From NCBI GenBank assembly GCA_014905635.1, contig JABVCE010000003.1, forward strand, positions 62,001 to 126,000: 64,000 nt of DNA, read 5' to 3'. The notes below the pieces were generated by a model. That model searched no databases, was not told the origin of the DNA, and saw nothing but the letters and a program-made list of their open reading frames with translations. Made by a program: the position numbers and the translations under genes. Source of the stretch: Scenedesmus sp. PABB004 (taxonomy: Eukaryota). Below are positions 1,027 to 64,000 of the stretch, piece after piece (positions within the stretch are counted from its first letter, which is position 1; each line of letters opens with the position of its first letter).

Positions 1027-2774
<1,748 letters not shown>

Positions 2775-3130: not shown

Positions 3131-3645
3131 CCACGACCAGCGAGCGTGGCGCTGCCCGCGCGCGTCGCCCGGGCGTGTTCGGTGGCGTCCCCCGCGTCGC
3201 AGCGCGGGCGCTGGTCGCGCACGAGCGCGCTCGCCCGGCGGCAGGGAACCCCAGCCTGTTATTATTCCGCGATGCCGCTGCCTTTTTCGGGCGAGTTGGC
3301 CGCCCCGCGCACCGCCACCGCCCCCGCGCGCTGGCGCACGCCCGCCCGGGCCGCCGCCGCCCGCGCCGCGCGGGTGTCATGGCGGCGTGGCGCCTCGGCC
3401 CTGGCGCGCGGCGCGCCTGTCGGCGTGGGCAGGCCCAGGGGCAGGGGCGCACGGCGCCCTGACTGCGACGCCGCCTGCGTCGCGCGCGCTCCACGGCTGA
3501 GCGCGAGCGTCCGCGCGCCGCCACTGGCAACGCCTGGCGCCGAGCGGGGCGCGTGGGCGCCTGGCCCGGCTGTGTGCACCACTGCACAGCGGGCCGGCGG
3601 TGCGGCTTACCACGGCTCAGCCGCGCCCAGCTCCGCCTGCGACAC
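3131..3645. repeat. Left arm of long inverted repeat (partner 10065-10630)
   Basis: 3191-3444 is the reverse complement of 10308-10561 with 3 mismatches in 254 bp. The flanks align with indels out to about 3131 and 3645. Confidence 0.95.
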
Positions 3646-6163
3646 CAGCGACGGGCCGCCGGCGTGCACCGCTGGCGCCCCTGGCTGCTGGTGGCTGCTG
3701 CTGCTGCTTTGGCTGCTGCTGCTGCTGCTGCTGCAGCGGCGGCGGCGGCGGCGGCTGCGGAAGCTGCGGCTGTTGCGGCTGCGGCGGCTGCGGCTGTTGC
3801 GGCTGCGGCTGCGACTTGGCTGCAGTGACTGGCCGCGCCTGGAGCGAGCCTGGTGGCGCGGCGCGTGCCGCGTAGCCGGCCCGCGTGCCAGCTGCTGCGG
3901 GTGGTGCAGGGCCGCGCGCGACGGCGCGCGGGGCTGGCTTGGCCGCCGGGGGCACCGGCGCGGCTGCACCGACGCCGGCGACGAGCGGCTGTGGCTCCAG
4001 CTGTGCCGGCTGCTGCGGCACCTGCGCTGGCTGCTGCGGCTCCTGCGCTGGCTGCTGCGGCATCTGAGCTGGCTGCTGCGGCTGCACCACCACTGGCGCT
4101 CGAGGGAGCGCCTCGCGACCTGCAGCAGCAGCCGTGGACGCCCCTGCGCGCAAGCTGGCCGCCGCCGCCGTCGCCGCCGAGTGCACGAGTGGGCTTGACT
4201 GCTTGCTGCGCGCCGCCGCTGCGACCTGCTGCATCGCCACGTCCGCCGCCGCCAGGTTGCCTGAGACCGAGTGGATGAACCTGCGGCGCGCGCGCCGGAC
4301 GTCAGGCACAGGCGTGCAGGCCCGCACCGCGCTGGCTAGGCCGCACTCGCTCACATGCGCAGCTCTGTCAGTTCCCGCTGCAGGTGCGGTGGGATGTCGC
4401 AACCTGTGCTGCCGCCGCTGCGAGGCTGCGGCGCCGGCAGCAGGCAAGGCTCGTCGCCGGCGGCCTGGCCGGCGCTGGCTGCCGCGGCGGCTGCGGCCGC
4501 GGTGCTGGCGGCGCTGCAGCACTGCTGCAAGCGCTGCACCTCAGCCGCGCCCGCGTCCGCCTCACGGCGCAGCCGCAGGAGCGCTGCGTCGCACTGCTTG
4601 GCGAGGCTGGCGGCCTCCGCGCGCGCGCGCCTCGCTTCCGACCGCTGCTCCTCTGACTGCGCGCTGGCCGAGGCCGCGGCGGCCTCCAGCACCTGCGCGG
4701 CCGTGGCGGGCTTGGTGGCCTGCCGCGCGGAGCCGCCGCTCGTGCAGGACAGCCGTCCCACCTGGTTCATGGCGCGCGCCACCGCCGCGTCACGCAGGGC
4801 GCCATCCAGCTCGCCCCGCAGCGCCGCCGCGGCGCACGCGTGCTCCGCCTTGAGCCGCTCCCCCGCGAGCTGAGCCTCCTGCAGCTGTCGCCGCAGCGCG
4901 GCCAGCTCCGCGCGCTGGCCCTCCAGCGCCGCGCCCGCCGTGCGCTGCGCGTCCGCCGCCACGTCCTGCGCGCGCTGGGCCTCCCGCAGCTGCAGGCCCA
5001 GCATGCCCAGCTCCCGCTGCAGGTCCGCGCCCTCTGCCTCGCGCGTGGCCAGCTTCTCTTGCAGGGCCTGCAGCTCCGCTGCGGCGGCGCCCTGCGCCGC
5101 CTCGGTCTGCGCCGCGCGGTCGTCGGCCATGCGCTTCATCACGGCCTGCCACTCTTGCAGGCGCGTCGCCTCCGCCTGGCTCTGCTGCAGCGCGCCTGCC
5201 AGTGTGGCGACTGCGGCGCGGCCGGGCGACGCGCGCCGTTGCCGCGGCCGCGGGCACCGCCGTGGCCACGGCTGGGCGTGCACTTGCATCGCGGGCGCGC
5301 GCCCGGCCCCCACCTTGCGGGCGCAGCTCGGCCACCGCCGCCTCGGCCGCCTGCTTCTCGCCCCGCACGGCGGCCAGCTCGTGCTGCAGCTGGCGCACCT
5401 GTGCCGTGGCCGCGGCCTCGGCCTGGTGCAGGCGCGCCTGCGCCGCGTCCAGCTGCGCCGCAAGCGCCGCGCCGCGCTCGCGGTGCTCGCGCAGCGCCTC
5501 GCCCGTGTGGGCCAGCTCTGCCTCGCGCACGCCCGCGGCCTCGCGCAGCGCCGACGCCTGGTCGCGCAGCCCCGCCAGCTCGGCGTCCAGGAAGTCGGCC
5601 TGCGCGCGCGCGCGCTCCGCCGCGTCTGCCAGCTCCGCGCGCGTGCGCTCGAGCTCCCACGCCTCGCGCTTGGCGGCCTCCGCCGCCGCCGCCGCCGCCG
5701 CCGCCTCGCGCGCCGCGCGGTCGCGCGCCGCATGCGCGCGCCCGAGCTCAGCCTCCAGCGCCTGCTTGGCCGCGGCCGCGGCTGCGGCGCGCGGCGGCGC
5801 GTCGCTGACCCGGGTGCGGCGGGCGACAGAGCCGGGCGCGCGCGCGCGGCGCCGCGCACGCGACACGCGACACCGCGCACCCGCGAGCCGCGCGGCCGTC
5901 GCCGCGAGCTGCCCCTCGAGCCGCTCCTTGTCCGCCGCGAGCGCGTCGCGCGCCGCGTCGCCGTCGGCGCCCTGCTTGACGGCGCCCTCGACCGCGGCCT
6001 CGAGGTCGGCGAGTGCCGCGCCGAGGCCCGGCCACGCCTCCGCTGACGCGTCGAGGATCGACAGCACCGTCAACTGCTCCCGCACCGCGGCCAGCGCCGC
6101 CTGCAGCGCCGCGCGGCGCTGCGCGGCGCAGAAGAAGCGCTCCGGCTGGCGCAGCAGCGCCAT
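3617..6163 (-). CDS. Long coiled-coil protein of unknown function with Q/P-rich C-terminus (multi-exon)
   Basis: Exons in coding-like frames ([11 protein letters not shown]..., [20 protein letters not shown]..., [15 protein letters not shown]..., LQRELTELR) with heptad-like A/E/L/Q/R composition, joined by GT-AG introns. Ends ...VAGGAGRG* at 3617. Confidence 0.7.
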
Positions 6164-6595
6164 GCCAGGGCCGCCTGAAGCAGTCCCCGTGGCGGGCAGC
6201 GCCGGCGCCGGCCGTCGTCTGCGGGGCCTGCCACACGCGCTCGGCGGCCCGCACGACCGGACACATGCGCGGTCAACGCCGGCGCCGGCCGTCCGGCGGC
6301 GCACGGTGAGGCACGTGCCGTCTGTGTCGGGCCCCCACAGCGGCGCCCGGCGCACCGGCGCACCGGCGCGCGAGCGTGCGGCGGCTCAACGGTCGCGCAG
6401 CCGCCGCTCCGGACGCATGCCGCCGCCCCACGCTCGCACCGCAATCGAATCGAGAGCGTGGCCGGCACGACACAAGCACGAGCAGGCAGAGGCAGCGCCC
6501 TTGCGCGGCGGCCGGCGCTCGTGCACGAGCGGCGGCGCGCGGGCGGCGGCAGCATCGCCGTGCCGTTGGCGATCATTGGTGCCAAAGGCCGGGCT

Positions 6596-9500
6596 ATGCT
6601 TGGGCGAAGCGTGGCGCGGCTGCGGCTGCTGCAACAGGCGGCTCCGGCAGCAGCAGCGGCGGCCGCACCGGCCGTGGAGCGCCTGGCGCAGGTGGGGCGC
6701 GCGTTGGGGCGGCCGGGCGACGCTCCATGCGACGGCCGGCCATGCGCCGGCCGCCCAACCCGCCGGCCCGCCGCCGCAGGCGCTGCACACCGCGGCCGGC
6801 GGCGGCGGCGACCCGCCGCCCGCTGCGGGGCCGCTCCGCCAGCCGGCCGGGCCCGGCGGGCCGCATGAGCAGCAGGTGGAGCTCCAGCAGCAGCTGGAGC
6901 GGCCACACCAGCCGCCGCAGCAGCCGGGGCGCGTGGCGCCGCGGCAGCACTACCACGCCGCGGCCGCCGCACCGCAGCGCGCGCGCCCCACGCTGCAGCA
7001 GCCGGCGGCGCACTGGCAGCAGCAGCAGGCGCAGCACCAGCAGCCAGAGCGGCAGCCGCCAAGCCCAGCCGCCGAGCGTCTCAGCAGCAGCAGCAGCGGC
7101 GCCGGCGGCGGCGCCGGCGACGCGGGAGGCGCCGGCGTGGCCGGCGGCAGTCCGCTGGCCGGCCCGCCCGGCGCACCCGGCGCCGCGCAAGCGGCGGCGG
7201 ACGCGGCGGACGTGTTTGAGCTGACCAGCTTCCAGCAGCAGTACGCGCAGACGCTGGAGCAGCTGCGCCTGGGCTACACCAAGAACCTCTCGCAGCTGGC
7301 AGAGGTGTTCGACCCGGCGGCGCTGCTGGCAGGTGCGTGCGCGCGCGCCTGCGCGGCCCCGCAGCGGCGGCAGCTGCCGCCTCAGCAGCAGCAGCGCCAG
7401 CGGCGGCAGCCCACGCGAGCAGCAGTCGCGCCGCGCCACTCACGAGCACCCGCCCCCGTCGCCTGCCCCCGCCGCCCAGCGCCCGACAAGGGCGGCGCGC
7501 TGCTGGAGGCGCTGCTGTTTGGCGCGGCCAAGCTGGGCGACCTGCAGCTGCTGCGCCAGCTGCTGCGCTGCCTGGCGGCGGCGGGGCTGCCGCTCAGCGC
7601 GACGGGCCACTGCGCAGTGCTGCACGGCCTCGCGGCGGCGGGGCGCAGCGCAGAGGCGCTGCAGTGGCTGCAGCAGCAGGTGCCGCCGGCGCAGCTCGGG
7701 GGGCAGGTGCTGCGCGCGCTGGTGCAGCCGCTGCTGGCGCGGGGTGACGTGGCGGCGGCGGAGCAGGCCCTCGCGTGGGCGGGCGACGGCGCGCTGGCGG
7801 GCGAGGGCGGCGGCCAGGCGCTGGCCTGCCTGCGGCTGCAGGCCGCCGGCGCCAAGGCCAGCCTGTCGGCGGTGCAGGCAGAGTGGGCTCGCATCCAGCG
7901 CGAGCGGCAGCAGCAGCAGCCGCTGGGCGTGCACGTGTGGGCGAGCTATGCGAGCGCGCTGGCGCGCGCGGGGCGGCGCGACCCCGAGTCCGTGGCGCAG
8001 CTGATGGCGGGCGCCATGGAGCAGCTGGCGCACACCTACCACGCCACGGCCTGGGAGCGCTGGGCGGCCAAGGTGGCGGCACGCCAGCAGCAGCAGCAGC
8101 AGCCGCAGCAGCAGCAGCAGCAGCAGCCGCAGCAGCAGCAGCAGCGACCGCCCAGCGCCGACGGCGGCGAGCCCTGGTGGCAGCCCGCGCGGGCGCGTGC
8201 CGCTGCGGCGTGGGCGCGCGCGTGCGAGCAGCTGGGGTCGGGGCAGGCGGTGCCGTGGTCGGCGCTCGACCCCGCCGCGGTGCTGCCCCAGGAGGTGGCC
8301 ATGGCGCTGCAGCGCGAGGAGCGCGAGCTCATGCGCCGCGCCGCCGACGCCGCGCTGCACGTGGCGGCGAGCGTGCAGGACGGCGCCGCCCTGGACACGC
8401 TGCTCAAGCGCGGCTCGCTGCTCAAGGTCTGGCCCCAGGCCTGGGGCTTTGACGCGCTCTTCAGCGCCGCCCTGCAGGGCACGCCCGAGCAGCTGGAGGT
8501 GGGGCCGGCTGCCCGGCGGGCAGCCGGCTGCCGGCTGGCGGCGCGCCGCCGCTCGCCGCCCACCGCGCCGCGCGCCCCCTCCCTCCCCGCCCACAGGAGC
8601 TGCTCGCCGAGGCGATGGGCTGGGGCGTCGCGCCGACGCTGTCGCACTTTGAGCACCTGGGCGAGGCGTACGCGCTGCACCGCGACGCGGCGGGCGCCGA
8701 GGCGACGCTCCAGCGCGCCGCGGCGGCGGGGCACGTGCCGCTGCTGCGCACCTTCAACCGCCTGCTGCACGGCGTCGCGCTCAGCGGCGACCTCGACGCG
8801 GCAGCGCGCGTGTACACGCGCCTGCGGCTGCAGGGCTTGGCGCCGGACCAGCAGACCATGCGCAGCCTGTTCAAATGCGTCCGGCTCTACGCGAGCCGCG
8901 TGCGCATCACCACCGCGCGCGCCATGGCGCAGGCCAAGCCCGGCGACAGGTGCGCCGGTGGTGGTGGCCCCGACTGCGCCCGCGGGCGGCCGGGCGGGCG
9001 GGCGGCGGCACCCGCCGCCGCGCCGCCGCGCCGCCGCGCCGCCGCGCAGTGCCGCAGCGCCACTCGCCGCGCCGCCGCGCCGCCGCCGCTGACCCCCCCC
9101 CCCCTCGGCCCGCCCCGCCCCGCGCCGTCCGCGCCGCGCAGCGAGGCCATCGCGGCGCTGCTGTCGCGCCGCGCGGGCCTGTTTGCGCGCGCCTACACCC
9201 AGCTCGCGGCGTGGCAGGGCGAGCTCGTGGCGGTGGGGCTGAAGCACAGCCCCGCGAGCCTGCACCAGCTCCTCGCGGCGCTCGAGCGCCTCGGCGCGGT
9301 GCACGACTGCATGCAGCTCGCGGCGCTGCACGAGGAGCTGCGCCCCGGCAGCTTCGAGGCGCACCGCTTTGCGCTGCAGGCCGCGAGCCGGCAGCGCACG
9401 CCGCGCGGCGCGGGCGAGGCCGCGTCGCTCGCGGCGCGCGTGGCGGCGGGCCCGGGCGGCCTGCGGCGCCACGACTACGCGGGGCTGATCGCGTCCAGCT

Positions 9501-10093
9501 TCTGGCTCAGCGGCGACCACCAGCAGCTGCTCGACACCGTGCGCGCGATGCGCGCGGCGGGGCACGAGCCCGACGAGGGCGTGCTGCTGCAGCTGCTCCA
9601 CGTCTACGCCGCCGCGGGCATGTGGGGCGAGGCGCTCGCGCTGCTCGACGACGTCGCCGCGGGCCGCGTCGGCGTGGGCGCGGGCGGCCTGCTCGGCGCC
9701 GACGGCGCCGGCGCCGCCGGCGGCGGGCCGCAGCGCGCGCGCCGCGGCCGCGGCGCCGCCGCGGCGGGCGACGGCGCCGCGGCCGCGGCGGCCGCGCACG
9801 TGCGGCAGGACCCGCTGTGGCACATCGTGCTGCGCAAGCTGTGGCAGACGCGCGCGTCGGACGCGCTGCTCAACGACTTTCTCGGCCGCATGCCGCGCGA
9901 CACGCTGCAGCGCTTCACGCTCCTCTACGGCCTGCGCCCCGCGCGCGGCGGCGGCTACACCATGCAGCCGCTGGAGGACTGGGAGCTGCCGCCGAGCGCC
10001 GGCGAGCCGGGCGCCGCAGGCGAGGCCGCGCAGGGCGAGGCCGAGGGTCGCGGCGCGCCAGCGACGGCCGCAGGCGGGGCTGGGCGCGGCTGA
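6596..10093 (+). CDS. Pentatricopeptide-repeat (PPR)-like organellar RNA-binding protein (multi-exon)
   Basis: Transit-peptide-like start MLGRSVARLRLLQQ. PPR-like units RTFNRLLHGVALSGDLDAAARVYTRLRLQGLAPD, HDYAGLIASSFWLSGDHQQLLDTVRAMRAAGHEPD, VLLQLLHVYAAAGMWGEALALL. Ends ...AGGAGRG*. Confidence 0.8.
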
Positions 10094-10630
10094 GCCGTGT
10101 GGTGGTAAGGCGCACCCACGCCGCCACCCCGCTGTGCAGTGCTCTAGGCAGCCGGGCCGGGCGCCCACGCGCTTCCCCGGGCTGCGGGCTCGGGGGTCAC
10201 CGCGGCGGCGCCCGCTCACCCCGCTCACCGCGCGAATCGCGCGCTCAGCCGTGGACCGCGCGCGCGCGCGACGCCGGCGGCGTCGCAGCCCAGGGCGCCC
10301 TGCCCCGCTGCCCCTGGGCCTGCCCACGCCGACAGGCGCGCCGCGCGCCAGGGCCGAGGCGCCGCGCCGCCACGACACCCGCGCGGCGCGGGCGGCGGCG
10401 GCCCGGGCGGGCGTGCGCCAGCGCGCGGGGGCGGTGGCGGTGCGCGGGGCGGCCAACTCGCCCGAAAAAGGCAGCGGCATCGCAGAATAATAACAGGCTG
10501 GGGTTCCCTGCCGCCGGGCGAGCGCGCTCGTGCGCGACCAGCGCCCGCGCTGCGACGCGGGGGCCGCCACCGAACACGGCCCCGGGCGACGCCGGCCGCC
10601 GCGCGCGGGCAGCCACGCTCTCTGGCCGCG
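10065..10630. repeat. Right arm of long inverted repeat (partner 3131-3645)
   Basis: Reverse complement of 3131-3645. Core 10308-10561 includes GGCCAACTCGCCCGAAAAAGGCAGCGGCATCGCAGAATAATAACAGGCTGGGGTTCCCTG. Confidence 0.95.
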
Positions 10631-10749: not shown

Positions 10750-12737
10750 ATGGAGCAGCATAGGGCGCTGGAGCCGGCGCTAGCGAGCGAGCACGACCCC
10801 GCGGACCTCACCTGGATTGAGTTCTGGCACGAGAGCGAGTTCAAGCTGGAGAGCGCCCTCCCGCACGCCCCAGGGGCGCCTGGGGGGATGGACCACGCCC
10901 TGCAAGCCCCGGAGCACGCCTTCTTCGCCGGCCACGCGCCCGGACACCCGCCGCACCACGGCGCCCACCCCAGCGGGGCGCTTGGCCCGGGCGCCGACGC
11001 CTTCGCGCTAGGGCTGCTGTCAGTCATCGATCACCACCACTCCGGCCCCTACACCGTGAGGCGCCGCCGCGCGCCGCGCCGCGCCGCGCGCGACGATCAC
11101 GCGGCCGATGAGAGGCGCGCGACGCCCCACCGGCCGCGCCCGCGCAGGCGCAGGACGTGTCCTTCCTGAGCAGCAGCACGGGGCAGGCGGGGCACATGCA
11201 GTCGTACTCCTTCTCCGACCAGCAGCACATGGGCGGCATGCACCCCGCCCCCATGATCTACCCCTCCGCCGCCTACCAGATGCCGGGCGCCAAGTCCGGC
11301 AGCCTCGCGGACGGTGAGCTGCGCGCAGGCGCGCGCGGCCGCTGCCGCGCGCGCGCGCGCCGCGCAGCTCACGCCGCGCCGGCTCGCCGCCCGCGCCGCA
11401 GTGCCCACGGGCAAGACGCGGCTGCGCTGGACGCCGGAGCTGCACAGCAGCTTTGTGGCGGCGGTGAACCAGCTGGGCGGGCCGGAGAAGGCGACGCCAA
11501 AGGGCATCCTCAAGCTCATGGACATGCCGCAGCTGACCATCTTCCACATCAAGAGCCACCTGCAGAAGTACCGCCTCAACATCCGCCTGCCCGGCGACGG
11601 CGGCACCGCGTCCGGCAGCACCGGCGCGCCGCAGCAGCCCGCGGGCGCGAGCAGCGGCTCGCTCGGCCCGGAGCCCGCGCCCACGGCCGGGACGGCCGGC
11701 GCGGACAGCGCCGCAGCGCCCGCGCCTGCGAGCGAGCCGGGGGCAGCTGCAGCGGCCGCAGCCGCGGCGGCTGCGGCGGCTGCGACGGCTGCAGCGCCGG
11801 CAGCCAGCGGCGGCGCCACAACGGCGGGCGGCTGCTCGTCGGCGACCGCCATCGCGCTGCAGCACGGCGGCAGCACACCGCTGGCGCTGGCGCCGTCGCC
11901 GCAGGAGCAGCTGCTGCAGCAGCAGCAGCAGCAGCAGCAGCAGCTACCGCCGCAGCCGGCGAGCGAAGCGCCCCCGCCGGAGGGCGAGGACGACGACGGC
12001 GTGCAGCAGATGCGGCACGCGACGCGGCGCGACCTGGAGCGCGCGCTATTGCAGCAGATGGAGCTGCAGAAGAAGCTGCACGAGCAGCTCGAGGTGCGCG
12101 CGCAATGCGCGCGCGCGCGCGCGCGCGCATGTGTGTGTGGGGTGAGGGGGCGGGGGGGGGGGGGGGCTGCACCAGCAGCGTGGCCAGCCGCGGCGCGCCC
12201 CCGTGCGCCGCCTGGGCCCGCGCGCGCGCGCGGCTCACGCCCTCCCGCGTGCCCGCCCCGCCCCGCCCCGCCGCGCAGACGCAGCGCCAGCTGCAGCGCA
12301 GCCTGGAGGTCCACCAGCGCTACATCCACAGCCTCATGGAGCAGGAGGGCCTGGCCCACAAGATCCCGGAGCTGTCCGCCGCGCTCGGCGGGGCCACGGC
12401 GGGCAGCTTTGTCAGCGAGGCCGTGCCCGCGCAGCCGCTCACGTCTGGCGTGCAGCAGCTGCAGCAGCAGCAGCAGCAGCTGCTGCCGGGTGGCGACAGC
12501 GGCGGGCAGCTGCAGCAGACGCAGCTGGCGGAGCCGCAGCAGCAGCTGGGGCAGCCGCCAGGCCGGCCGCCGGCGCCCGATGCCGGCGCGACGGCGGGCC
12601 TGCCGAGCGGCGGCGGCTGTGACGTGGATGTGGACCTGCTGATCTCGGACCCGGACGCCGCTGGCGAGGAGGCCGACGCCGACCCACCCAAGGCGCCGCC
12701 GGGCAAGCGCCAGCGCATGCAGGCGCCCGGCGCCTAG
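10750..12737 (+). CDS. GARP/G2-like MYB-CC transcription factor (PHR1/PSR1-like)
   Basis: [55 protein letters not shown] (SHLQKY MYB), plus coiled-coil [33 protein letters not shown] (LHEQLE motif). Confidence 0.93.
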
Positions 12738-13146
12738 GCGCTGTGCCAGCGGGGGAGGGGGGGGGGGGTGCGACGGCGGCAGGGCGCAGCTGCTCCCGCC
12801 ACGTCCGCACAAGGCCAGGGGTTGGGGGTGTGCGCCACCGGCATCGGCGCATCGGCGTCGGCGCGCAGCGCTCGCCGCGTCGAATTCTTTCACGCTCGCC
12901 TGCTCATGCGTGCTTAGACAGGTGACGTTGATACCTTCAAAGTCACGGCACTTGCGACGTTGTCGCGGCTTAAATGGGTAAACTGCACTCGAACGACGCA
13001 GCGGTTGCAGCGGTTCACTCAGCAGCGGCGCGCCGCGTTTCTCCGCCACAGCCCCGGCACCTCGTGAGCCGTCAGTCTTCACGCCGCGTGCCAGCCAGCC
13101 CACCCCGCAGCCAGCGCGCCCGGGCAGCCAGCGCGCCCGGGCAGCT

Positions 13147-14946
13147 ATGTTGGCCGCCGGCGCTGGCGCAGCGCTGCCGCCGGCGCGGCCGGGCCGCGCG
13201 CAGGTGTTCGTCTACAGGTGCGTGGCCTGGCCGTGCCCGCGGCCCCCCACGACCGCGCGTGCGCGCGCTGGGCGCTGTGCAACAGCGGCAACAGCGCTGG
13301 CGGTTGCGCGGCGCGCCGCCGCGAGCGCTGCTGCGCACCGCAGCGAGCGCCCGGCGCCCTCGCGTCCCGCCGCTTGCCGCAGGGGCGAGGGCGCGGGCTG
13401 GCGGAGCGTGCGCAGCGCGCAGGACGCGCTCAGCCGCCTGCTGCCGCCCTCGTACCAGGCGCGGCGCCCAGGCGCCGCGCAGCGCCGCGCCAGCAGCGCC
13501 CGCCGGCGCAAGCCTGACCCGCCGCCGCCGCCCGCCGCCGCCCTTCAGGTCGGCACGCTGGGCGCCGCTGAGCTGCTCGCGGGCGGCTGGGCGTCGCGCG
13601 CGGCGCTGCTGGTGATGCCTGGCGGCGCGGACCTGCCGTACTGCCGGCACCTCAACGGCCGCGGCAACGCCATCATCAAGGGTGCGCCCCGCACCGCCGC
13701 GCACCGCCGCGCCGCGCGCCGGCCGGCGCCCCCGCGACGCGCGCCGGCCGCCGCACGCGCGCCCGGCGGCGCAGAGTATGTGTCGCGCGGCGGCTCCTAC
13801 CTCGGCCTGTGCGCGGGCGCGTACTATGCAGCGAGTGCGTGTGCGGCGCGCGCCGCGGCCGGGTGCGGCCCCTACAAACAAACCTGGCGCTGCGCGCGCG
13901 CGCCCGCCGCCGCCGCCGCCGCGGCAGGCCGAGTCGAGTTTGAGCCCGCCGGCGCGCTCGCGGTGGTGGGGCGGCGGGAGCTGGGCTTCTTTGCTGGGAT
14001 CGCACGGGGCGCCGCGGTCGGGGGCTTTGATTACCAGACCGAGGCGGGCGCGGCGGCCGCGCCGCTGCGCTTTGCGGTCCCGCCCGCGCTCGCGGCGGGC
14101 CTGCCGGAGCAGCGGCTGGGCCCCGCGAGCGCGCGGTGGGTGTGCGTGCGCGACTACTGCAACGGCGGGCCCTTCTTCCTCGCGCCCGGCGGCGGGCTCG
14201 ACCTGGGCGGCCTGCCGGGCGTGACGGTGCTGGCGCGCTACAAGGACCTGGGCGACCGCCCCGCGGAGCTGGCGCGGCAGGCGGAGCAGCACGCGCAGCG
14301 GGAGCAGGAGCGGGAGCAGCAGCAGCCGGGGCAGCAGGAGCAGCAGCAGGCGCCGCGACACGCGGAACGGCGTCGGGCCAGCAGCAGGCCAGTGCCGCCG
14401 GGCGAGGCGCTGGAGCCGGCGGCAGCGGTGCGCTGCGAGGTCGGCGCCGGCGTGGCAGTGCTGTGCGGCAGCCACCCAGAGCTGGAGCCGGGCTGGTTGG
14501 ACGCCTGCGGCCGCGCGCGCGAGGGACCGCGCGCGGAGGCGGCGACGGGTGCAGCAGCGGCTGACGCGGGGCCCAGCGAAGGCGAGCGCGCCCTCGCCAG
14601 CGAGCAGCGGCCGAGCAGCGACAGCGCTTGGCGCGCGGGCGCGGTCGCCATTGCCGGCGTGCCTGTGGTGGCGGCAGCGGGGCTGGCGGCTGGCGCGGAG
14701 GCGGCTGCGCGGCAGCAAAGCAGGTCAGCGCCGCTGCGTGCGAGCGGGGGCAGCGGCGGCGGCGAGGGCGGCGGCGAGGGCGGCGGCGAGAGCGAGGGCG
14801 AGCCTGCGCAGAGCATCAGCGCATGCCCTGACGCTGCGCTGGCGGCGCACGCGGAGGCGCTGCGGCGCGCGCTGGCGGCAAACCAGGCGGAGCGCGACCT
14901 GTTTCTGTCGTGTCTGCTGTTCGAGGTGCTGCGGCGGCCGGGCTGA
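13147..14946 (+). CDS. Stand-alone biotin-protein-ligase N-terminal (BPL_N; class I glutamine amidotransferase-like) domain protein
   Basis: VFVY...LLVMPGGADLPYCRHLNGRGNAIIK|EYVSRGGSYLGLCAGAYYA...RVEFE...RELGFFAG...YCNGGPFF...VLARY...AAAVRCEVGAGVAVLCGSHPE. No BPL catalytic domain before the stop. Start codon uncertain. Confidence 0.82.
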   Translation: MLAAGAGAALPPARPGRAQVFVYRCVAWPCPRPPTTARARAGRCATAATALAVARRAAASAAAHRSERPAPSRPAACRRGEGAGWRSVRSAQDALSRLLPPSYQARRPGAAQRRASSARRRKPDPPPPPAAALQVGTLGAAELLAGGWASRAALLVMPGGADLPYCRHLNGRGNAIIKGAPRTAAHRRAARRPAPPRRAPAAARAPGGAEYVSRGGSYLGLCAGAYYAASACAARAAAGCGPYKQTWRCARAPAAAAAAAGRVEFEPAGALAVVGRRELGFFAGIARGAAVGGFDYQTEAGAAAAPLRFAVPPALAAGLPEQRLGPASARWVCVRDYCNGGPFFLAPGGGLDLGGLPGVTVLARYKDLGDRPAELARQAEQHAQREQEREQQQPGQQEQQQAPRHAERRRASSRPVPPGEALEPAAAVRCEVGAGVAVLCGSHPELEPGWLDACGRAREGPRAEAATGAAAADAGPSEGERALASEQRPSSDSAWRAGAVAIAGVPVVAAAGLAAGAEAAARQQSRSAPLRASGGSGGGEGGGEGGGESEGEPAQSISACPDAALAAHAEALRRALAANQAERDLFLSCLLFEVLRRPG

Positions 14947-15407
14947 GCACCGAGGCAACGGCGGCGCCGACGTGCGAGCGAGCGACGCCAACCAACGTTT
15001 ACACGCGGGGGCGAGCGCTTGAAGGTCAAGTTCGCAGCATCAGCAAAAGCCGCACCAGATCTTGATGCATTTGCACCCTCTCGCGATCCGTGCAGACCCG
15101 CGCTCGGTCATCAACACGCAGACACACGCCACACCCGAGGCGGAGCGCTCGCGTGAAGCGCCGCTCGTCTGCGAGCGGCTGCACGCCCCCGACCACGCGC
15201 GCGCATGCAGCCGCGGCCCTGATCCAGCCCAGAGCGGGGCACGCGCCGCCGCCGACAGCGATCTCAGCGGCGGGGCAATTCGAGGGCGCGGCCAATGCAG
15301 CTCTCGGACCCCACAGCACTCGAGCACTCGCGCCAGCAGCTGCTGGAGCGCGTCCAGGCTCCTTCCCCGCTCTCTCGGCGCGCGCAGGGACCGCGGCAGC
15401 GCCCGAC

Positions 15408-62943: not shown

Positions 62944-63317
62944 CGCGGCGCCGGCGCAGGGCGTGCGAGGGGCGGGGCGCGCCGCCGCGCGCAGCGCCCC
63001 TGCTGCCTGCCTGTCATCATGCCACCTTGCCATCACGCCATCATGCGAGCGAGAGCGAGTGCGTCCGCCGCCGCGGCGGGGGGGGGGGGGGGGGGGGGGG
63101 GCGTGTTCAGTAGCGGCGGCTGCCCGGCCGGCTGGAGTTGCCGGCTGCGCGGGGCAGCCGGTGTGTGCGTGTGAGAATGCGCGGCGGCGCCGCGCGTTTG
63201 GCGGCCGCGCAGCGGCAGTTTTGGGCATCATCGCGGGGCGGCGTGCGCGGCGGGGCCGGCAGCAATAAGCAGCGCGGGCCCCAGCGCCTGCAGGCGCGCC
63301 TGTAACCTCGCCAGGGC

Positions 63318-63328
63318 AAAAGGCAAAA
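63318..63328 (-). terminator. RNA polymerase III terminator (two T4 runs) of the permuted tRNA
   Basis: TTTTGCCTTTT, 9 nt downstream of the 5' half on the minus strand. Confidence 0.7.
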
Positions 63329-63336
63329 GCACCAGG

Positions 63337-63337
<1 letters not shown>

Positions 63338-63367
<30 letters not shown>

Positions 63368-63488
63368 TCACCGCCAACCACCGGGGTGGTGTGCGTATAG
63401 TCTGATTGCACAGACAGATTCAATGAGCTCACACGGTAGAATCACGCGGTGAGCAGGATTTGAACCTGCGCGGGAACTCCCAATTGAT
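63338..63488 (-). tRNA. tRNA-Ser(AGA): Circularly permuted tRNA-Ser(AGA): 3' half (63488-63445) upstream of 5' half (63374-63338), 70-nt spacer
   Basis: 5' half GCGGTGA TG GCC GAGCGGTTAA GGC G ATTGA CT AGA A. 3' half A TCAAT TGGGAGTTCCCGC GCAGG TTCAAAT CCTGC TCACCGC G. Acceptor (GCGGTGA/TCACCGC), anticodon (ATTGA/TCAAT), D and T stems pair perfectly. Long variable arm and G73 fit Ser. Confidence 0.93.
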
Positions 63489-63530
63489 CGCATGCCGGTG
63501 CATGGGTGCGTCCGAAATCATCGACTTAAA

Positions 63531-63537
63531 TTATATA
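63531..63537 (-). promoter_or_regulatory. TATA box upstream of the permuted tRNA gene
   Basis: TATATAA (minus strand GCGTATATAATTTAAG), ~43 nt upstream of the 3' half. It is one of very few AT-rich tracts in the window. Confidence 0.65.
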
Positions 63538-63827
63538 CGCTTGATGTCTAATGTTTTTGGAGCCGTTTTTCTCCCCGACCGCGGCGATTTCGGCCCGGGA
63601 AAAACGCCCAGTCACATCAGGGTCCATCGATCTTTCACCTCAGCCCGGGCGAAAAACGAACTCAAACAAAAAAGCGCACACGTCAGACCCACCCCTCCAC
63701 CCGCGCGTGCGCGCGGCCGGCCGGCCCGCGCGCGCCAGGCGCGCCCGCCCACGTGCCTCCAGCACCACCCGGCTGCTGCCGCCGGTGGACAGCGCGCCGG
63801 GGCTGCAGCTGCGCACCCTCAGCGGCA

Positions 63828-64000
63828 TCACTCGGGCGCCGTCCCCGGCTCTCCGGCGCCGCGCCGCGCGCCGCCGAGACCCGCCGGCCGCTGCCGCTTG
63901 GCCGTGGACAGCACCGCCTCCAGCGACATGTGCGCAAACGCTGCCTGCTGCGCCGCGCTGCGCTGCGCCGCCATGGCGGCTGCAGAGACGATGGATGCCG
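63828..64000 (-). CDS. Possible 3' end of a gene entering from the right edge
   Basis: Open frame ASIVSAAAMAAQRSAAQQAAFAHMSLEAVLSTAKRQRP...TAPE* with coding-like codons. No family recognised. Confidence 0.3.
   Translation of the reverse strand, partial: ASIVSAAAMAAQRSAAQQAAFAHMSLEAVLSTAKRQRPAGLGGARRGAGEPGTAPE

Follow-up and report, generated by a model that had tools for sequence, protein, structure and literature searches.

We suggest, with a probability of roughly 0.6, that the inverted duplication described here goes back to a 6.4-kb inversion which duplicated the unit at a breakpoint and survived by virtue of intact junctions, and that the two copies drifted before gene conversion acted on their core. 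The locus lies in a 64,000-nt stretch of green-algal nuclear DNA with a base composition of 79% G+C (the window). It is most likely explained by known processes and probably does not represent a working genetic switch. Its features are as follows:

1027..2774, minus strand: MAP kinase (MAPK) gene with a TEY motif, beyond the left arm and pointing away from it (Pkinase matches on two exons, and sequence)
3134..3641, no strand: left arm of the inverted duplication (blastn and pairwise alignment)
3191..3444, no strand: putatively homogenised core, left copy, with 3 mismatches and 0 indels (alignment and permutation test)
3247..3287, no strand: AT-rich patch with a T5 run, likely a 3'-end or promoter signal (base composition scan)
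3445..3616, minus strand: decayed inner flank, presumably the proximal 3' UTR of the coiled-coil gene (alignment)
3617..6163, minus strand: single-copy chlorophyte coiled-coil gene of the family of Chromochloris Cz02g26130, ending in AGGAGRG and a stop if 4354-4281 is spliced, otherwise at the stop at 4351 (homologue searches)
6596..10093, plus strand: PPR gene, orthologue of Tetradesmus obliquus P0001, ending in AGGAGRG and a stop (domain and homologue matches)
10069..10628, no strand: right arm of the inverted duplication (blastn and pairwise alignment)
10308..10561, no strand: putatively homogenised core, right copy (alignment)
10750..12737, plus strand: PSR1-type MYB-CC transcription factor gene, beyond the right arm and pointing away from it (Myb and Myb_CC_LHEQLE matches, chlorophyte PSR1-type homologues)

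The two arms form the longest inverted pair within the window (blastn: 83.8% over 562 alignment columns, E 4e-175) and lie 6.4 kb apart. Their divergence is patchy. The 254-bp core differs only at 3268, 3379 and 3388, while its flanks carry 24 substitutions in 250 aligned bases and every one of the 17 indel events, giving 27 substitutions over the whole arm; the longest exact stretch common to both arms is 110 bp. A 256-column stretch holds at most 3 of the 44 events, and such clustering was matched in 0 of 100000 permutations, in a test that corrects for picking the best stretch. The inverted copies, the 254-bp core with three mismatches and the indel-decayed flanks had all been described in an earlier, sequence-only reading of this DNA, and each was borne out. 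Read outward, an arm consists of the last seven codons of the inner gene, its stop, G-rich 3' UTR-like DNA, the AT-rich patch and the upstream DNA of the outer gene. The arms thus contain only seven codons of gene sequence rather than duplicated genes, and the duplicated piece appears to be one whole tail-to-head intergenic unit, with the roles of its non-coding parts being putative.

Both inner reading frames finish with the same peptide, AGGAGRG, with TGA at 3617-3619 and at 10091-10093. In the 25 coding bases that they share there is one substitution, silent in the AGGAGRG frame, although a single site proves little. For the PPR gene the stop is credible, because the tail past the last conserved motif (35 residues, the last 7 from the repeat) is close in length to that of the T. 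obliquus orthologue (27 residues), with which the protein aligns at 51-60%; this alignment assigns the DNA to the Sphaeropleales. For the coiled-coil gene the ending is less sure. Without splicing its frame stops at 4351-4353, and AGGAGRG requires the removal of a predicted 74-nt intron (4354-4281). At the motif where the gene described here has this in-frame stop, the Chromochloris protein comes to its end, whereas other homologues extend beyond it. As the donor and acceptor of the predicted intron are normal and match in phase, and as homologues continue past the motif, splicing seems the likelier alternative. The claim of the sequence-only reading that both genes end in the same peptide therefore stands for the PPR gene, and for the coiled-coil gene only if this intron is spliced. 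The coiled-coil family is conserved among chlorophytes (41 homologue matches); the second exon used as a homologue query gave no matches, and a search of the ESM Atlas returned generic coiled coils only.

Both outer genes point away from the arms, as the sequence-only reading had proposed for a symmetric layout, but their start codons lie at unequal distances outside them (359 bp for the MAPK, 121 bp for the MYB-CC gene). The latter shares with its chlorophyte homologues an N-terminal motif and the KYRLNIRLP end of the MYB domain, and one of these homologues carries the name PSR1 in its source. In green algae, PSR1 controls phosphate starvation and the storage of lipids. Our literature search found no paper on the linkage of PSR1 and a MAPK in Scenedesmus.

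The arm DNA is otherwise single-copy, and is present twice, inverted, on both sides of the segment. Searched against the 40-Mb genome, the arm gave 13 matches, of which two were full; the other 11 began at query positions 168-195, i.e. in one sub-stretch of the arm, and were GC-rich low-complexity look-alikes. The distinctive 91 bp of the arm had two genome matches, these counts being lower bounds. A dispersed repeat or MITE was thereby ruled out, and the many scattered copies that the sequence-only reading had named as evidence against itself did not appear in the genome search. The same reading had noticed neither a transposase nor a target-site duplication. This holds true, as no transposase was found in the 10 frames scanned, which cover the four genes and the next gene, and no direct repeat is common to the outer edges of the arms.

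The gene order was compared with that of Chromochloris. The first lead to Cz02g26120 as the Chromochloris PSR1 came from a preprint (bioRxiv 10.1101/2025.09.29.679311), and this gene is listed as the PSR1 orthologue in supplement file 3 of PMC11258321. Cz02g26130 was identified by homologue search as the counterpart of the coiled-coil gene. By these listings the two have consecutive identifiers. In the present DNA they are separated by the PPR gene, as would be expected from an inverted cassette. The adjacency occurs in one of the three genomes with both identifiers, Chromochloris being the sole informative outgroup; in the more distant [Myrmecia] bisecta and Chlamydomonas sp. UWO 241 the coiled-coil and MYB-CC locus tags are apart. 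On the other side of PSR1, the next Chromochloris identifiers in the PMC7161124 supplement belong to HIS6 and a B9 gene. Here their counterparts share the contig with the locus, at a distance of about 470 kb, and the chromosome has therefore been reshuffled internally. Further Chromochloris identifiers are Cz02g26150, a queuosine-salvage gene found here on another contig, and Cz02g18140, the group-C MAPK; for Cz02g26140, no annotation was found in the Chromochloris supplement files searched, those of PMC11258321 and PMC7161124 among them. The T. obliquus accessions for the PPR gene and PSR1 come from different assemblies. For the Scenedesmaceae, 16 chromosome-level genomes are reported in PMC13315243.

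Metagenomes were also scanned. With PSR1 as the query, 80 of 447 loci were kept, and none of the 80 had MAPK, coiled-coil, PPR, BPL or core matches or resembled a close relative; with the PPR gene, 0 of 304 candidates were confirmed. A low-share run (0.05 of words) revealed a near relative, in pieces with 1-27 differing letters, and among the 8 of 578 pieces shown, none lay over the core or bridged an arm. One contig of this relative matches from 10637, beside the outer edge of the right arm, with its first 18 letters unmatched. The pattern might point weakly to the PSR1 side as the place of the new junction, but an indel would explain it equally well. On the other hand, the 121-bp gap in front of PSR1 and the tail length of the PPR protein suggest that the coiled-coil/PSR1 junction could be the original one.

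Based on these observations, we propose that a 6.4-kb segment with the PPR and coiled-coil genes was inverted and that the DNA at one breakpoint was duplicated, either by staggered breaks or by template switching. The duplicated 510-560 bp would correspond to the whole tail-to-head intergenic unit, so that each junction would have come with a stop codon and a 3' end for one gene and upstream DNA for the next. In this reading the unit supplied all of these, which would account for the survival of the rearrangement and for its symmetric look. With so little space between genes, a few hundred bases, an inversion would be survivable only if each junction retained a promoter as well as a stop and a 3' end, and the symmetry of the layout may accordingly be a matter of survivorship, the look of a survivable inversion in a compact genome. 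After the duplication the copies would have drifted to about 10% divergence, with indels, before ectopic gene conversion between the arms reset some 250-290 bp in their middle. The near-identical, sharp-edged core is best read as the result of such later conversion, and selection may add to its conservation. A staggered-break inversion scar had been offered as the alternative in the sequence-only reading; it is now the favoured explanation, given the two copies, the lack of a target-site duplication and the difference from the Chromochloris order, and homogenisation by conversion is likewise favoured by the clustering of identity. Counting against the inversion, one junction would also have had to lose DNA by deletion, whichever way the copying went. 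The cassette could on rare occasions re-invert through the core, which would be functionally silent. For green algae, our literature search retrieved no report of micro-inversions in nuclear DNA that carry inverted repeats.

The locus is one of a recurring class of inverted pairs, unevenly spread along the contig. An all-against-all comparison of its first 856 kb (at least 120 bp, 80%) gave 98 repeat rows, of which 12 were inverted and formed nine pairs, every one with a spacer below 8 kb. Three of these, in the repeat-rich first 21 kb, were set aside, leaving six local pairs: the one described here and those at contig positions 125, 143, 194, 365 and 637 kb. The three other pairs that were checked had full-length matches at their own two arms only. 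In two of the five other pairs both arms contain tRNA genes; in another, a tRNA lies about 200 bp beyond the pair, and the duplication takes in no more than the 5' part of a gene. Towards the contig's end, the final 110 kb contain one short inverted pair, 24 kb apart.

A separate observation concerns a circularly permuted tRNA-Ser(AGA) gene at 63338-63488, near the edge of the window, whose rejoined halves fold as tRNA-Ser(AGA); the pattern used matched exactly at its two copies and nowhere else. Permuted tRNAs are described in passages of PMC3978253 and PMC13578239 from Cyanidioschyzon, prasinophytes, a nucleomorph and an archaeon, and in a passage of PMC12633428 from Auxenochlorella. In the portions of the literature searched, no report from Chlorophyceae was found, and this gene may be more surprising than the inverted repeat.

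The core was also inspected for signals. The patch at 3247-3287 and its copy are the only places between 2700 and 11000 with at least 12 A/T in 20 nt; AT patches of a similar kind also occur at the unduplicated junction behind PSR1. The sequence-only reading had pointed to a GGTAA signal shared by the two inner genes. The motif is indeed present at both gene ends, but its role as a signal is unsupported: in 856 kb it was seen 65 times against 59 expected, and for want of enrichment it was rejected as a poly(A) signal, whereas TGTAA is enriched (99 against 65). It could possibly form part of a GTAAG splice donor, and the inner flank at 3445-3616 possibly contains a 3' UTR intron with a GTAAG start; GGTAAG itself occurs 14 times in 856 kb, with no enrichment over GGTAAC. 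Scans of the core revealed no known RNA family and no tRNA: the eight Rfam matches at E up to 5 neither reached the cut-off nor lay in the core, no tRNA gene was found there, and the T-loop motif was seen on neither strand. Nor does the core fold better than shuffled sequences (z 0.19 and -1.35).

One alternative dispenses with an inversion. One intergenic unit might have overwritten the other junction by template repair, with no change of gene order at this locus and with the PPR gene inserted in this lineage or moved away in Chromochloris. Such an ectopic copy predicts the same sequence anatomy, and local duplications in both orientations are common on the contig; we nevertheless regard it as unlikely, as the adjacency of PSR1 and the coiled-coil gene in Chromochloris would need a separate event. 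Very unlikely, in our opinion, is an assembly artefact, i.e. real copies with the cassette placed in the wrong orientation by the assembly, or with the core homogenised in polishing. Turning the cassette round would bring back the Chromochloris adjacency, but the contig is 1.84 Mb long and ends in telomere repeats, the arms share no exact stretch beyond 110 bp, and the many flank indels are not of a kind that assemblers invent.

The remaining alternatives attribute a function to the core or to the flipping itself. That the core is a module under selection (a promoter shared by the MAPK and PSR1, an element common to the 3' UTRs, or a non-coding RNA gene that escaped recognition) seems doubtful to us, and slightly more so than the ectopic copy. 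It holds the T5 run and the only AT-rich patch of 8.3 kb, a fact which also counts against pure conversion, the PSR1 start codon is just 121 bp past the arm, and tRNA genes occupy other pairs of the contig. On the other hand, the RNA scans and folding offered no support, similar AT patches are found outside the duplication, the MAPK has 359 bp of upstream DNA of its own, and the absence of indels over 254 bp, low-complexity GC runs included, would be unusual for promoter selection. A regulated switch, in which frequent inversion of the cassette alters expression, is extremely improbable. The inverted cores are 99% identical, and the sequence-only reading was right that flipping is geometrically harmless, as no gene would be broken, but no coding sequence or promoter would change: a crossover in the core should keep the outer flanks with the outer genes and the inner flanks with the inner genes, leaving the output as it was. 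No recombinase was found in the 10 frames scanned, and for the yeast flip/flop region, whose repeats are 4 kb long, PMC9731477 records no flip over about 53,800 mitoses and 950 meioses. A more speculative proposal, which we also hold to be improbable, is a miniature intergenic flip/flop region at a master phosphate-starvation regulator, where ongoing conversion between the 250-bp cores would re-create both orientations among strains; it would belong to a genome-wide, conversion-maintained class, several members of which would have been seeded at RNA polymerase III genes, and its core would hide an undescribed small RNA or a shared regulatory module.

If our preferred reading of an inversion followed by conversion is correct, the locus illustrates how a compact algal genome might be reshuffled without killing genes, as a duplicated intergenic unit equips each neighbour. 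One of two unrelated proteins would probably have gained a new C-terminus, and either the MAPK or PSR1 would have gained new upstream DNA. An orientation polymorphism or a promoter swap at PSR1, if true, would be of note given what this gene controls. Repeats of this class may allow ectopic conversion in algae to be tested cheaply by PCR.

Several known systems resemble the locus in part. TIR transposons and MITEs also have long inverted ends, but they are dispersed in multiple copies and flanked by a target-site duplication, whereas here there are two copies, no such duplication, and ordinary single-copy host genes inside. Site-specific invertible elements, such as fim, hin and the shufflon, likewise comprise an invertible segment between inverted repeats; unlike them, the locus shows no recombinase, no short recombination sites and no promoter or gene end that would change its partner.

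Inverted duplications of single-copy DNA are described in passages of PMC3355041 as a mark of staggered-break inversions. In the Drosophila inversions 2h and 2q presented there, both ends of the segment carry inverted copies of non-repetitive DNA, without a transposon or target-site duplication, and gene ends can be duplicated, all of which is similar to the present case. Here, by contrast, the segment spans 6.4 kb and carries two genes, the duplicate measures 0.5 kb and appears partly re-homogenised, and the comparison is made with an ancestral order that is only partly known. The flip/flop region of Saccharomyces chromosome XIV, as portrayed in a part of PMC9731477, spans 24 kb between homogenised 4-kb arms made of two sporulation gene pairs; both orientations are documented, and it re-inverts over evolutionary time while being stable in the laboratory. 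It shares with our locus an inverted repeat around single-copy genes, putative maintenance by conversion and re-inversion that is possible in principle. The arms described here differ in being intergenic, with a near-identical part of 254 bp and one known orientation, and such a short core should re-invert more rarely than the 4-kb arms of yeast.

A circularly permuted tRNA-Ser(AGA) gene, with its junction at 37/38, is located on the minus strand at window 63338-63537. Its parts are listed below in the order of transcription, followed by its second copy in L103, which, like the other L-numbered stretches, belongs to the same contig outside the window and has its own coordinates.

63537, minus strand: TATA box
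63488-63445, minus strand: 3' half
70-nt, minus strand: spacer between the 3' half and the 5' half
63374-63338, minus strand: 5' half
after the 5' half, minus strand: T runs
L103 about 4196-4403, plus strand: second copy of the gene

Rejoining of the 3' and 5' halves, which are identical in both copies, gives a canonical tRNA. In a Ser(AGA) pattern search the two permuted copies were the only exact ones among the 14 matches listed. The gene had neither an ARAGORN call nor an Rfam match, and no report of a permuted tRNA from Chlorophyceae was found in the literature searched.

The gene sits within a second inverted duplication (window 63045-64000 and L103:1-4723), which, at about 1250 bp, is longer than the one at 3134-10628. 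Its arms, separated by a 3.2-kb spacer, show 9 substitutions and an exact stretch of 743 bp, and its genome copy number is two. Other inverted duplications on the contig were as follows.

L109:8393-8969 and L110:3740-4315: tRNA-His(GTG) gene in both arms
L104:7829-8235 and L105:1881-2287: 5' part of a protein-coding gene
L154:1417-10000: palindromic duplication, 2.8-kb-plus, 96.6%
L126:9473-9622 with L127:2641-2798: short inverted pair, 84%

The left tRNA-His(GTG) copy (L109) carries D-arm changes and scores lower than the right one. The partly duplicated protein-coding gene, judged by eye, looks like a universal stress protein gene, and an intron-bearing tRNA lies beyond the right arm of this duplication, at a distance of about 200 bp. 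At the start of the contig, repeat units of about 172 bp form a tandem array (L096:678-9872), which adjoins retroelement-like frames.

Near the duplication at 3134-10628, the MYB-CC gene PSR1 is directly followed by another gene:

about 13140-14950, plus strand: gene that encodes a biotin-protein-ligase N-terminal domain (BPL_N)

The ARAGORN tRNA-Ala call in a PSR1 intron (window 11078-11153; 84% G+C, without a T-loop motif) is probably false. Intron 1 of the MAP kinase gene appears to have a GC rather than a GT donor (window 2298, minus strand), and further GC-like splice donors seem to be present elsewhere in the genome.
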